64,000 nucleotides of DNA from a virus, in the IMG/VR virus record IMGVR_UViG_3300037797_000117, positions 1-64,000 of that record. One strand, written 5' to 3'. A program made the position numbers and the translations under genes. Numbering within the stretch: the stretch's first letter is position 1; each line of letters starts with the position of its first letter. Positions 40-4,415 of this stretch are shown here, one piece after another. The notes beneath the pieces were generated by a model that was not told where the DNA came from, did no database searches, and worked only from the letters and a program-made list of their open reading frames with translations.

Positions 40-3000
40 CTACGCGTCGCCTAGAGCGTCCACGGTCGCCGCGTCACGCTTGCCGGCCGGAACCATGTTC
101 CGCATAGCCGCCCGCACCGTCGCCAGCGCGGCCGCCCGGTCACCTCGGACCGTCACGATCATGTCCCGCTTGGCGGTGCCCTTTTCCACGCTGGCACCCT
201 TCACACCCGCGCCTTTCAGCGCGGCACGCACGGCGTTACGGGCGTCCCCGTACGACATGCCAGTCAGAGCATAGGCAGGGAGCGTAAAGGTGTCACTGGA
301 CCGCGTAGCGGCCGTCTCAGGCGCCGCAACGGGCGCGGCGGGCACGGGTGCGGGGGTCGCCTGGTCGCCGGTCAGCAGCGCGTACGCGGCCGCGAACGTG
401 GCCGCCATCTCCGCACGCTGCGCGTCGGTCAACGCCGCTACGTCGGCCGGCATGACGGGAACGGCCACGGTTACCGGCGCGGGCGCGGGCGCGGGCACCT
501 GGTCGACGACGGGTGCGGGCGTGTCGACCGTCGGCACCTGGTCGACGACGGGCGCGGTGTCGACGACGGGCGCGGCCACCTGGTCACCGGCCAGCCACGC
601 CGCAAGCCGGTCCCGGCCGGAGGCGCTGTAGCCGCCCGTGAATTCGGCGTGCGACGTCTCGAAAATGAACCCCTTCGCACCCTTGTTCCAAACCCCGCCG
701 AACGTGGACACCTGGTCACGGATGGCCACGTACTCATCACGCGACAGACGCCCCTTAGGCAGGGTCAGAACATCCGCCGGGAACCGCTTGCCTTTCACGG
801 TCACGGTGTCAATCGACCAGGACCCCGCCGACAGGACCTCACGTACCCGCGCCGCGATATCGGCGGGCGCGTCGGTAGCAACGGGAGCGGCCGCCGTGAC
901 GGCCGGCTCATCCTCGGCAGCAACGGGCGCGGGCGCGTTGGCCGATTCGTGCGACGCGATCATCGCGCGCACCTGGTCGAACGTGAACCGTCCGGCGACC
1001 AGGTACCCGGCGGGCGCCGCATCCTCGGCACCGGCCAGCGAAACGCGGGCGGCCGCGTAGTCACCGGCCGACATGAGTGTCCGGGCGTCCTCGGCCAGCC
1101 GTTCAACGGCATCGATCGGGGCGGGCGCCTCAACGGTGGCGGGCGCGGTAGCGGCGGGCGCGGGCATGGCAGTCTCCTTGCTCGGTTCGTCCGACACGGC
1201 GGGCGCCGCAACGGGGGCGGGTACGGGTAGGTAGATGACGCGTCCGGTGGACAGTTTGGCGCGTACGCTGCCAGCCATCCGACCCCGCGTGATCGGTTCG
1301 ATCCGGGTGATCCGGGCGGTGAGGGTGAGCCGTTCCCCGTTGCCGTTGCGACCCTCGATCGCGGCAGCGTCACCGGACGCCATAGCTGTACGGGCATCCT
1401 CGCCGTTGCGCACGGTCACGGCGGGCGTGTCCGTCTCGCCGGTAGCGGGGTGATCGTGGGTGCACATGTCCGGCGCGCAGTATGCGGCCGCGCTGTCCGG
1501 CGCGGGGTTGTCGGCGGGCGCGGCGGGCGCGGCAACGGGGGTCTTGACGGGTGCCGTGTCGTCAAGCCGAACGGGCATGAGCACGTGCTGTGTGGTGAGT
1601 CCGTCCTGTGTGATCAGAACGGGCATGCGTGGCGTGTTGACGCCGATCCGAACATCACCCGTGAAAGTCCGCAGGCCGGCGGTCAGATAGGCGTGGTTGA
1701 ACCCGATTCGGGTGTCGGCGGGCACGTCATGCGCGCACGGCACGTGACTGGCGGCGCGGTCGCCGTCGCTGATCGCGACAACGTTGACCCCGGACGGGTC
1801 GAATTCCAGCCGCACCGGCGTGGACCGTTCCAACGCCGGGGATACGCGCTTGACGGTGTCGGCAAGGGCGGCCGCGTCCACGGTCACCGTGTACGGCCGG
1901 TCACCTCCGATAAGGGCGTCGAGTTTGGGGAACGTACCGTCAAGGGTGCGCGTGGCCAGCGTCACCCCGCCTACGGTGACCGACACACGCGGACCGTCGA
2001 CGCCACGCGTGTCGTCCGCCCCGATATGAACGTCACCGGCCAGCTTGCCGGCCAGCTTCGCGGCGTACACCAGGAACGGCGCGGGAACGAGCGCGTCCAC
2101 AGTGCCGGAGGTGCCGGTAGCGGCCACCTGGTCACGGGCAAGCCGGTACCGGTCGGTGGTTTCCATGCGCAGCATGCCGGGGTTGTCGGCGGACACCGTG
2201 ACGTGAACCCCGGTGAGAACGGGCAGGGTGGCATCCTTGCCTGCCGCAACGGCGGCGCGGGCAACCGTGGCCGCGAACATGCCGGCTGGCAGGGTGGCAA
2301 CGGTCGGCGGGGTTGCTGGCAGTGTCGGGTAGTCGTCCGGGGTCGGATACGTTGCCAGGTCTGCACCCATGTCGCCGTATGCGATTCGCAGCGTTCCCCC
2401 GGCGCACGACAACGAGACGGTGTCCGGGGTGGCAACGGCACCCTTGCGGGGCTTAGCGGGCGCCGGGAACTGCCGCACCATGTCACGCATGGCAGCCGCC
2501 CTCACCAACACAACGGCGTTGCCGGATGCGCTACCGGGCACCTCGAATCGGGCGGACGCCTCATAGTCGAACGCTTCCAGCGTGACCCCGGACCCCCCGG
2601 TCGTGATCTTGACGTGTGCCAGCAACGGGAGGTTGCTACGGGTACCGATCACCCAATGCGCGGTGTCAAGCGCACGGACGAGCGCGGCACGGTCCACAAC
2701 GGCGGCCAGCGGTGACGCGTCGGCGGGGGTCGATTCGGTGGTCTGGTCGGCGGTGGCGGTGGGCGTGGTCATGGTGTGATCTCCGTTCGGTTCGGTGGTC
2801 TGGTCGGCGGATAGTTCGATGTGTGACGGGCACCCGTTGCGGTGGCCTAGAGCGCCCGCAAGGGCAACGTTGGCGGCCGGGCAACCGCAGTCCAGAACGT
2901 CACCCGGCAGCCGGCCGGCGAGGGTGACCCCGAAAACGGTGTGCCGCTCATCCACGATCACGTTGGTAACCGTGCCGTAGGTGTCGGGCCCGTTGTCGAC

Positions 3001-4092
3001 GAAAAGGGTGATCTTGAGGCGGTGCGGGCCGTTGACGCGTACCTCGGTAACCTCGCCCGTGTCGGACTCGATCACGGGTGTGTAGTCGATGCGCGCGGCA
3101 TAGTCGCCCGTGGATTCGTCGGTCGTGATGTGCTGATCGGTCCGGACAACCCGGGTGATCGTGACCAGGTGTCCACGAAGGTCTGAGAAACCCTCGCCAG
3201 CGGCCACGGTCGACCAGCGGCACATGCGTCCGTCGGTGGTCATCGGCGGGTCATCGGCGTCCGTGTCGGCCGACACGTCGGCAACGGGCGCGGCCGGCAA
3301 CGGGATCTCAGTGCACCTGGCAACGTTGTAGGCGACCAGGTTGACCAGAGACGCACCGTACGACATGCCGCCGCCTACGGTGCCGCACGCGACCGACCCG
3401 TCGATGATCAGCGCGTAGTGCGTCCGGACGGGGGTCAGCGGTCCACGCGACTCATAGGCGACCAGGCACACCGCGTGCCCGTTGACGTCGAACGTGGACA
3501 CCTGCACCTCACGGATGCGGGCAGGGGCCCGGTCCCACCCGTTATCGCCGTCCCCGGTCATCTCAGCGGACAGTCCACGCGCCCGAAACGCGTCCCGTAG
3601 CTGCCGGGTAAATCCGTCCGACCCGCACTCACGCGGGTCCGGCGCGTCGGACGGGACACGCAACTGCAGCGCAGCAACGTCTACGGGCGGAATCCCGTTG
3701 CACTTGACCAGGTCACAGCCCATTTCGCCGGTGACGTGCGCGCACCTGGTGTCGGAGGTGCGGGTGTCGTCTTCCACCCGTGCGGCGTGGATTTCCGCGC
3801 TCGTTGCAGGTGCCGGAGTGATCACGGCCAGGTGATCGAGGGTGGGAACGGTCACGGAACGGTCCACGGGCGTGCCGTTGCGCATCCGGTCGGCCCCGTC
3901 TTTGTTGACCACGATTCCACCCACGATCGGCCGGTCAAGCAGGTTGGTGCGCTTGCCTGCCCACGTGATGATCTCGGTCACGCGCATCCGGAAAGCCCCC
4001 TTGTATTCGGGGACTGATCCGGCCGGAACGTCGACCAGGTCACCGACGCGGACGGCGGGACGGGTGGCGGTGGAAGCGGCGGTGGTGATCAT
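40..4092 (-). CDS. dnaN: Large multi-domain protein containing a full DNA polymerase III beta-clamp (DnaN-like) domain at ~1564-2700
   Basis: Motifs FDYEASAR, AAGKDATLPVLTGV, TTDRYRLA, TRTLDGTFP, IGFNHAYL and HVLMPVRL match actinobacterial DnaN in order. ATG 4092 has a GGAG RBS. Confidence 0.85.
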   Translation of the reverse strand: MITTAASTATRPAVRVGDLVDVPAGSVPEYKGAFRMRVTEIITWAGKRTNLLDRPIVGGIVVNKDGADRMRNGTPVDRSVTVPTLDHLAVITPAPATSAEIHAARVEDDTRTSDTRCAHVTGEMGCDLVKCNGIPPVDVAALQLRVPSDAPDPRECGSDGFTRQLRDAFRARGLSAEMTGDGDNGWDRAPARIREVQVSTFDVNGHAVCLVAYESRGPLTPVRTHYALIIDGSVACGTVGGGMSYGASLVNLVAYNVARCTEIPLPAAPVADVSADTDADDPPMTTDGRMCRWSTVAAGEGFSDLRGHLVTITRVVRTDQHITTDESTGDYAARIDYTPVIESDTGEVTEVRVNGPHRLKITLFVDNGPDTYGTVTNVIVDERHTVFGVTLAGRLPGDVLDCGCPAANVALAGALGHRNGCPSHIELSADQTTEPNGDHTMTTPTATADQTTESTPADASPLAAVVDRAALVRALDTAHWVIGTRSNLPLLAHVKITTGGSGVTLEAFDYEASARFEVPGSASGNAVVLVRAAAMRDMVRQFPAPAKPRKGAVATPDTVSLSCAGGTLRIAYGDMGADLATYPTPDDYPTLPATPPTVATLPAGMFAATVARAAVAAGKDATLPVLTGVHVTVSADNPGMLRMETTDRYRLARDQVAATGTSGTVDALVPAPFLVYAAKLAGKLAGDVHIGADDTRGVDGPRVSVTVGGVTLATRTLDGTFPKLDALIGGDRPYTVTVDAAALADTVKRVSPALERSTPVRLEFDPSGVNVVAISDGDRAASHVPCAHDVPADTRIGFNHAYLTAGLRTFTGDVRIGVNTPRMPVLITQDGLTTQHVLMPVRLDDTAPVKTPVAAPAAPADNPAPDSAAAYCAPDMCTHDHPATGETDTPAVTVRNGEDARTAMASGDAAAIEGRNGNGERLTLTARITRIEPITRGRMAGSVRAKLSTGRVIYLPVPAPVAAPAVSDEPSKETAMPAPAATAPATVEAPAPIDAVERLAEDARTLMSAGDYAAARVSLAGAEDAAPAGYLVAGRFTFDQVRAMIASHESANAPAPVAAEDEPAVTAAAPVATDAPADIAARVREVLSAGSWSIDTVTVKGKRFPADVLTLPKGRLSRDEYVAIRDQVSTFGGVWNKGAKGFIFETSHAEFTGGYSASGRDRLAAWLAGDQVAAPVVDTAPVVDQVPTVDTPAPVVDQVPAPAPAPVTVAVPVMPADVAALTDAQRAEMAATFAAAYALLTGDQATPAPVPAAPVAAPETAATRSSDTFTLPAYALTGMSYGDARNAVRAALKGAGVKGASVEKGTAKRDMIVTVRGDRAAALATVRAAMRNMVPAGKRDAATVDALGDA

Positions 4093-4415
4093 GGCAGGCT
4101 CCGATCGGGTAGGCGGTGCACACGTGCAAGGGGGGGGCGGGCAGTTACTCGCTGACATCGCAGCGTTCGGCGATGGTGACGAATCGGCGTGTCACCTGGT
4201 TACGGTCGTCGATGGCGCGTACCCGTTCGGCGCGGTTGTCGGCGAGGGTGAGGGCGTCCCGCGCGCCGTCGGACAGCGCGCCCAGGACGGCGGCGTAGGC
4301 GTCCGGGTGCAGGCGACGCAACTTACGCAACATGATCAGCACGGCTTCGTCGGTGGCCTCGGCATCGGTGTACGGGGTGGCGGTCATGGCGGGCTCCGAT
4401 CGGGTGGGCCGTGCA
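4090..4415 (-). repeat. ~31-bp direct repeat spanning the RBS and ATG of two adjacent genes (4090-4120 and 4385-4415)
   Basis: catggcaggctccgatcgggtaggcggtgca vs catggcgggctccgatcgggtgggccgtgca. Confidence 0.85.
4145..4387 (-). CDS. Hypothetical protein
   Basis: 80-aa ORF with GGAG RBS 6 nt upstream, in operon context. Confidence 0.7.
   Translation of the reverse strand: MTATPYTDAEATDEAVLIMLRKLRRLHPDAYAAVLGALSDGARDALTLADNRAERVRAIDDRNQVTRRFVTIAERCDVSE

Follow-up and report, generated by a model that had tools for sequence, protein, structure and literature searches.

In-frame internal initiation giving nested products is already well known. Classical cases among replication genes are T7 gene 4 (gp4A/gp4B primase-helicase) and phiX174 A/A*, and a smaller form of the Escherichia coli sliding clamp, beta*, was reported in the 1990s to arise from an internal in-frame start within dnaN. 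Phage endolysin genes give two polypeptides from in-frame overlapping open reading frames (ORFs) via internal translation start sites, and hetero-oligomers can form from the long and short products (Pinto et al., 2022, PMC9430671). In E. coli, in-frame internal initiation sites were mapped by retapamulin ribosome profiling (Ribo-seq; Meydan et al., bioRxiv 10.1101/520783). Here, the gene of a giant modular beta sliding clamp protein was analyzed in the first 64 kb (the window, 64,000 nt) of the 166,387-bp IMG/VR virus record IMGVR_UViG_3300037797_000117, which has terminal repeats and 69% GC. Internal in-frame initiation probably yields nested clamp isoforms from this one gene; Met441, just ahead of the clamp, is very likely a working start, while the chances that Met976, in the tail, is one are about even. 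What is new is the carrier, an undescribed family of giant modular clamp fusions, and the pattern, in which up to two module-boundary starts are maintained across the family.

Like the endolysin genes, the clamp gene has an in-frame Shine-Dalgarno (SD) element and start codon inside the ORF at an inter-domain linker, with a common stop, and the short product would consist of the C-terminal module or modules. It differs in that the carrier is a sliding clamp fusion, that there are two internal sites rather than one, and that the case is known from sequence alone. T7 gene 4 and phiX174 A resemble it as replication genes with an internal in-frame start and a shorter product that lacks an N-terminal domain and joins the long form in a ring, as isoforms of the clamp would; compared with T7 gene 4, the protein family is another one, the ring would be a clamp dimer rather than a helicase hexamer, and the T7 forms are experimentally established. 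Beta* shares internal in-frame initiation within a beta-clamp gene, but starts inside the clamp and removes domain I, whereas the start described here precedes an intact three-domain clamp and would remove foreign N-terminal domains. The E. coli internal starts represent the same general phenomenon, but in cellular genes with measured initiation, where the clamp case has the evidence of sequence.

Start motifs within the clamp gene

The locus in the window is called W and its 1350-aa protein P0001; L002-L016 are the loci of relatives, and other P-numbers are proteins. The elements relevant to initiation are as follows, with positions in the window.

40-4092, minus strand: whole gene of the giant modular beta-clamp protein (isoform 1), 1350 codons plus a TAG stop at 40-42.
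4099-4102, minus strand: SD 1 (GGAG), 6 nt before the ATG at 4092-4090; found by motif scan, relatives' N-termini align with this Met, 63-nt fold of -6.4 kcal/mol.
2781-2784, minus strand: SD 2 (GGAG, codons GGA-GAT), 8 nt before the ATG at 2772; anti-SD duplex of -8.7 kcal/mol.
2770-2772, minus strand: candidate internal start 2 (Met441), which would give a 910-aa clamp plus tail (isoform 2); SD and start conserved in relatives, weakest fold at aa424-453, G at 2/13 four-fold third positions (G3).
1174-1179, minus strand: SD 3 (AAGGAG, codons AAG-GAG), 6 nt before the ATG at 1167; anti-SD duplex of -9.0 kcal/mol.
1165-1167, minus strand: candidate internal start 3 (Met976), less certain, which would give a 375-aa tail-only isoform 3; equivalents in P0017 and P0021, fold of -15.5 kcal/mol (86th percentile), G3 5/15.
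2787-2810, minus strand: direct repeat copy A (repeat family D10), encoding ADQTTE, upstream of internal start 2.
2730-2753, minus strand: direct repeat copy B (repeat family D10), encoding ADQTTE, downstream of internal start 2.

The preliminary description had placed three SD-ATG motifs on the minus strand, at 4092, 2772 and 1167, in one frame, at domain boundaries, and with a duplicated ADQTTE around the middle one. All three were found at these positions, with spacings of 6, 8 and 6 nt, in one frame with no stops between them and with products of 1350, 910 and 375 aa. The duplication is a 24-nt direct repeat, identical at 23/24 positions, that flanks the aa441 start on both sides. The boundaries also held: aa441 lies 21-24 residues ahead of the clamp (from 465 by Pfam, from 464 by PHROG), and aa976 lies in the linker between a small beta-barrel module (SH3C) and a helical module (AGDY).

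GGAG stands 5-9 nt upstream of just three of the 29 in-frame ATGs from aa1 onward, those at aa1, aa441 and aa976. Among internal in-frame ATGs it was present at this distance in 2/26 here and in 3/322 in the genome's other ORFs with high GC content at third codon positions (GC3), for which a binomial estimate gives P ~0.025. This excess is modest, most of the 46 AAGGAG copies in the genome do not precede genes, and the RNA signals at Met976 are just intermediate, all of which would fit two GGAG-ATG combinations that arose by accident in an ORF of 1350 codons at a genomic GC content of 69%. For Met441, the recurrence among relatives and the RNA-level signatures given below rule out accident for practical purposes; for Met976, an SD and ATG stand at the same junction in both relatives with this module order, and chance may still account for the site. 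Taken for both sites, chance is a most unlikely explanation. The weight of the case for internal initiation comes from comparative evidence. SD strength alone was rejected as a criterion, as several non-candidate codons score equally well.

Two side observations were made on start motifs. A repeat finder grouped the start regions at 1145-1175, 2750-2780 and 4070-4100 into one 31-nt family (71-77% identity; pattern ...NNCC-ATG-NCC-NCG-CCC-GCC-GC...), which partly reflects Pro/Ala/Thr codon composition and has a fourth copy, without an ATG, at 1514-1544. Outside the window, the same phage carries a second candidate nested start, an in-frame AAGGAG-9-ATG at about 81421-81438 (plus strand) of contig G000:C1, inside the ORF at 79903-82230 (L017:300-2534) and 511 codons into this 744-776-aa ORF; no Pfam family was found for the ORF, and the nested start would leave a 265-aa C-terminal product.

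Comparison of the pre-clamp linker among relatives

DNA was obtained for 12 relatives, and 13 loci including W were compared over the linker of about 45 codons before the clamp. The pre-clamp elements were as follows.

W: GGAG-8-ATG.
L002, L003, L005 and L010: GAGG-5-ATG.
L011: GGAGG-8-ATG.
L014: GGAAGGA-7-ATG.
L016: AAGGAG-6-ATG, with the Met at the canonical DnaN N-terminus (MSRIAFTV).
L013: GGAG repeats followed by GTG.
L008 and L009: weaker GAAAGTGAG.
L004 and L015: no pre-clamp start.

An in-frame start with an SD-like element was thus present in 11/13 loci (clear in 8, weak in 2, a doubtful GTG in 1). The preliminary description had named conservation of the internal ribosome-binding sites among related phages as a check, and for the aa441 site these 11 loci, together with an invariant island in six, bear it out. 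The L013 (aa367, GTG) and L014 (aa293) candidates are not to be taken as firm, their RNA signatures being weak or none. Because L004 and L015 are without one, the pre-clamp start is not obligatory.

The pre-clamp SD is encoded by different residues in each lineage (NGD, ESEA, TEEP, RKDS, AKES), and the residue after the Met is always S, T or P. Six loci, whose clamps are 29-61% identical (one near-identical pair aside), carry the invariant island CC-GAR-AGT-GAG-NCN-NNC-ATG embedded in an otherwise unalignable linker; the Ser codon of this island, AGT, makes up 6.7% of Ser codons in the family genes. When set against the anti-SD at the actinobacterial 16S 3' end, the sequence GAAAG-T-GAGG reads as the ideal GAAAGGAGG with one bulged base. 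The cassettes resemble the annotated starts of these genes, with a purine-rich box, 5-8 nt ending in ACC/ATC/GCC, an ATG and a small residue.

In L005 (protein P0005), the GAGG-5-ATG cassette, within 'EATMSATV...VAQVEP', occurs twice, at L005:6862 and L005:7291 (aa294 and aa437), and the copies flank an inserted Cys-rich module of ~140 aa. This copied cassette and the 24-nt repeat in W suggest that linker recombination shuffles modules and that start cassettes are carried along; repeated linker sequences, VAQVEP among them, have the appearance of substrates for the recombination behind this shuffling.

The same features might be read as remains of separate adjacent genes that were fused by stop loss, whose relic SD elements and ATGs are no longer usefully used and of which only the full-length product matters. 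The modules do act as independent units (the stand-alone N-domain P0011 in L012, the N-terminal clamp of P0028, the shuffled tails), the repeats flanking the cassettes in W and L005 are like recombination scars, and the pre-clamp start is gone from two relatives. Relic motifs would be expected to erode, but the island is invariant, rare AGT codon included, across loci with 29-48% clamp identity; lineages with unrelated linkers each have an SD and start in this position; the sites have kept both the depletion of synonymous G and the minimal folding of the RNA; and no relative was found in which the gene is split at either internal start. We therefore regard it as unlikely that the starts are fossils. 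Fusion by stop loss, which the preliminary description had offered as a possible history, is plausible as the origin of the gene; in place of a split relative, just the paralogue in L012 and the permuted P0028 were found.

RNA folding and synonymous codon usage

RNA-level signatures were not used in picking most of the candidate sites. The 63-nt window at Met441 folds with -2.6 kcal/mol, compared with an ORF mean of -21.4 kcal/mol (standard deviation 5.7), and aa424-453 is the weakest-folding stretch of the whole ORF, with even the annotated start folding more strongly (-6.4 kcal/mol). In nearly every relative the weakest-folding window of the ORF coincides with candidate internal starts, and the start-less L004 and L015 show no comparable window. 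In an objective scan that required an anti-SD duplex of at most -6 kcal/mol and a fold within the weakest 3% of the ORF, 15/1117 in-frame ATG/GTG codons in the family passed, nearly all in pre- or post-clamp linkers, compared with 1/399 in the genome's other long ORFs, at codon 50, which is probably the true start of that gene.

G3 was 16.5% within +/-10 codons of the candidates and 42% around other in-frame ATGs (Fisher P 3e-16); other linkers of similar composition had 43%, and codons 2-11 of the annotated genes had 12%. This depletion argues that selection acts on the RNA and not on the protein. As a frame control, an SD was found before 23/313 in-frame and 5/207 out-of-frame ATGs.

SD-like, unstructured RNA could instead act as a pause or folding aid during elongation, or reflect linker composition, with the ATG an ordinary Met codon. 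The elements lie exactly at domain boundaries, where co-translational folding pauses have often been proposed, an established but contested idea, and Thr, Pro, Ala and Glu, with their A/C-rich codons, abound in the linkers. A pause needs no start codon, yet an ATG or GTG follows 5-9 nt downstream in 11/13 loci, and few other Met residues occur in these linkers. Moreover, the other linkers of similar amino-acid make-up that have normal G3 also fold normally, and the flanks of the candidates (ACC/ATC/GCC at -3 to -1, Ser/Thr/Pro as the second codon) match the annotated gene starts of these phages. An effect on elongation is thus a very unlikely account of the sites. With regard to internal initiation, scans upstream of the internal starts for a sigma-70 promoter and for the genome's regulon promoter TTGYnn-N17/18-TAnnnT found neither, and therefore the internal starts would be read from the same mRNA.

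Candidate starts downstream of the clamp

The SD is strongest at Met976, and the position of this site is conserved. An SD and ATG were present at the SH3C-to-AGDY junction in 3/3 proteins that have it (W aa976, P0017 aa1044 and P0021 aa1038), the clamps of which are ~30% identical. Start cassettes also stand just after the clamp in L013 (aa802), L016 (aa876) and L011 (aa795, GTG).

In comparison with genes that have internal translation start or initiation sites (iTSS/iTIS), site 2 of P0001 shows the SD spacing, common stop, linker position, conservation and open RNA of such genes; site 3 shows the SD spacing, common stop, linker position and junction conservation, and its open-RNA signal is intermediate. 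The nested isoforms put forward in the preliminary description are accordingly strongly supported for aa441, by recurrence, the island, folding and G3, and moderately for aa976, by the junction equivalents and the post-clamp starts of two to three other relatives, with RNA signals that are intermediate.

Protein modules

P0001 contains at least eight modules, listed from the N-terminus.

3802-4092, minus strand: N-module 1, aa1-97, SH3/KOW/Tudor-like beta-barrel; AlphaFold (AF2) pLDDT 88, VIA Z ~7 to KOW/Tudor/ribosomal barrels, which is within background.
3289-3801, minus strand: N-module 2 ('ZnAB'), aa98-268, Cys/His knuckle (C117, H119, C126, C131) plus alpha/beta sandwich; no known family.
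2797-3240, minus strand: variable module, aa285-432, Cys/His-rich at its end.
1558-2709, minus strand: beta sliding clamp, aa462-845, DnaN domains I-III; PF00712, PF02767 and PF02768 above cut-off, phrog_947.
1207-1416, minus strand: tail module SH3C, aa893-962, small and beta-barrel-like; defined by the jackhmmer module map.
937-1125, minus strand: tail module 'AGDY', aa990-1052, three-helix TPR-like hairpin; AF2 pLDDT 86-93, VIA Z 8.5 to TPR, which is within the helical background.
577-879, minus strand: tail module 'WS', aa1072-1172, alpha/beta with conserved W...GGxW..KGF; no Pfam or Atlas lead.
43-309, minus strand: C-terminal module (CTD), aa1262-1350, ferredoxin/ACT-like alpha/beta; VIA Z ~7.

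Residues 464-844 form a complete three-domain DnaN beta clamp. PF00712, PF02767 and PF02768 matched aa465-842 with 50.6, 51.5 and 34.0 bits (cut-offs 24.4, 27 and 27), and phrog_947 matched with E 3.6e-61 over 5-366 of its 368 positions. Stand-alone DnaN proteins (~375 aa; phrog_947) have the same three domains, to which P0001 adds 440 residues on the N-terminal and 505 on the C-terminal side; these additions gave no match to Pfam or PHROG, also in Pfam searches to E 10 on seven sub-segments.

The AlphaFold model of aa1-270 (24-sequence alignment, pLDDT 88) contains the barrel (aa10-96), the Cys/His knuckle and the alpha/beta sandwich (aa155-265), and the four knuckle residues are nearly invariant. 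A Foldseek search of the N-domain model against the PDB gave no match at E <= 0.001. The model of aa976-1350 (pLDDT 65 overall, 75-93 in folded parts) contains the three-helix TPR-like module, an alpha/beta module and the ferredoxin/ACT-like end, with disordered Pro/Ala/Val linkers between them. VIA structure comparison yielded just generic SH3/KOW/Tudor, TPR and ferredoxin-like likenesses at background Z, and an ESM-Atlas feature search with the WS module was uninformative (scores <= 0.82). Complex prediction with two copies of the clamp domain scored 0.16 against a mark of 0.42, a 'no answer' that counts neither for nor against a ring. A clamp-binding motif found by eye, QLRDAF at aa164, was dropped because it is inside a predicted helix and is not conserved.

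The family of clamp fusions

A profile of the N-domain was searched against 1.84 billion representatives, yielding 42 proteins; the ZnAB domain is present in 42 representative proteins, mostly clamp fusions. About 20 representatives, from independent metagenome samples, are 1060-1480 aa long with the order N-domain(s), clamp, long tail, and the architecture of P0001 is seen in P0002-P0010, P0014, P0017, P0020 and P0021. The tail modules (SH3C, AGDY, WS, CTD) recur among relatives in varying order. Clamp identity within the family is 23-61%, one 90% pair aside. The P0001 clamp is 26-42% identical to those of its nearest long relatives, no closer than to cellular DnaN, and its nearest stand-alone counterparts are actinobacterial DnaN-like proteins at 28-35% identity. 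At least four unannotated clamp-linked domain families were defined (SH3N-ZnAB, AGDY, WS and CTD).

DNA and protein searches of deposited phages returned just distant stand-alone clamps (Arthrobacter and Rhizobium phages), a scan of viral contigs with the clamp alone found nothing, and a word-based search for stand-alone relatives (278-886 aa) of the C-terminal 506 residues found none. P0011 (260 aa, a stand-alone N-domain) was considered as half of a split gene and rejected. It overlaps by 4 nt the start of P0046 (region L012:286-2420), which again runs from N-domain to clamp, and since it precedes another N-domain/clamp fusion it is a tandem paralogue. P0028 (1277 aa) is permuted, with a free clamp N-terminus: its clamp begins at residue 1-3 and is followed by ZnAB and WS.

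The polyvalent proteins of phages and conjugative elements have 2-15 distinct domains in shuffled architectures, and proteolytic release of these domains has been proposed; neither 'clamp' nor 'DnaN' occurs in that study (Iyer et al., 2017, PMC5512222). P0001 resembles them in being very long, with many small linker-joined modules of shuffled order, and ZnAB co-occurs with LPD29 and DUF3560 in the clamp-less P0025 and P0027 (1297 and 1612 aa), which loosely links the family to polyvalent proteins. It differs in having none of their hallmark conflict domains (LPDs, ArdC-N, methylases, peptidases), the clamp being its only Pfam family at E up to 10. In L014, the gene that follows the clamp fusion also contains DUF3560 (L014:5018-6186), which makes the association a recurrent one.

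Gene boundaries and genomic context

The ORF at 40-4092 is a single, genuine gene, carried by an actinobacterial phage. Its minus-strand frame is open and stop-free from 4158 to 40, and 22 further open codons upstream of the ATG at 4092 (4093-4158, minus strand) reach an ATG at 4158 that is without SD and overlaps the last codons of an upstream 80-aa gene, the stop of which is at 4145. Because GGAG stands 6 nt upstream of the ATG at 4092 and the N-termini of all relatives align with its Met, the gene was taken as 4092-40, with 1350 codons. A longest-ORF gene caller would annotate 1372 aa, starting at 4158.

The clamp gene is located in a minus-strand block with small early-type genes, away from the structural genes. 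Pfam searches of the 166-kb genome for DnaE (PF07733), Pol A (PF00476) and the delta' domain of the clamp loader (PF13177) gave no match; they did not extend to Pol B or other loaders. As none of these three is recognizable, the phage clamp probably either relies on enzymes of the host or serves as a recruiting hub on DNA. A few genes downstream of its clamp gene, a 55-kb relative carries a DpdA/DUF6884 gene and a DNA methylase (L002:10030-15065), a hint that the DNA of this phage group is modified (7-deazaguanine type).

Discussion

In the proposed mechanism, one mRNA would have three ribosome entry points. Initiation at the first would give the full-length product (isoform 1, 1350 aa), in which the clamp carries an N-terminal SH3-like barrel and a new Cys/His-alpha/beta domain and, C-terminally, a ~500-residue string of adaptor-like modules joined by Pro/Ala/Thr-rich linkers. 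Ribosomes would also load within the same mRNA at the linker-encoded SD and ATG of Met441, in the unstructured stretch before the clamp, giving isoform 2 (910 aa), a ~22-residue leader with clamp and tail but without the N-domains. Initiation at Met976 would give a probable isoform 3 (375 aa), the TPR-like, WS and ACT-like tail alone. Because all clamp-bearing forms share the clamp, mixed dimers would be possible, and these isoforms could form mixed rings via the common dimer interface, which at present is speculation; the free tail might compete for, or deliver, partners of the tethered tails.

Several observations weigh against this reading. The within-genome excess of GGAG-ATG pairs is modest, and several other in-frame ATG/GTG codons in the ORF match the anti-SD duplex energies of the candidates. 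L004 and L015 have no pre-clamp start, the SD in L008 and L009 is just weak, and the L013 GTG (aa367) is without RNA signature (fold at the 74th percentile, G3 50%). The loci are related, so the site counts are non-independent events, and some of the candidates had been chosen by eye ahead of the objective scan. At Met976 the RNA signals are intermediate (fold -15.5 kcal/mol, 86th percentile; G3 5/15 = 33%), and the site fails the objective scan.

A broader idea, possible though doubtful, is that the giant clamp genes are 'operons without stop codons', in which portable start cassettes (SD, ATG and an unstructured G-poor leader) move with the modules and give graded products and asymmetric rings. 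If this were true, linker recombination would move the cassettes, and one mRNA would produce a fully decorated clamp, a clamp with tail and a free tail. In asymmetric rings, one protomer would be decorated and the other accessible to the host clamp loader and polymerase, with the free tail tuning recruitment. A phage would then have a new way of turning a hijacked host clamp into a DNA-bound recruiting hub and of regulating this hub, and internal initiation would join proteolysis as a release route for parts of polyvalent-type proteins.

The combination of SD and start codon, weakest RNA-folding window and synonymous G depletion is a computational signature that may be used to look for hidden isoforms elsewhere, since gene callers give the longest ORF only, and for high-GC actinobacterial phages the family provides a case in which conserved internal initiation at several sites can be tested. 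Sliding clamps are universal docking platforms of DNA replication and repair, and decorated and plainer versions from one phage gene would suggest a tunable DNA-bound hub.

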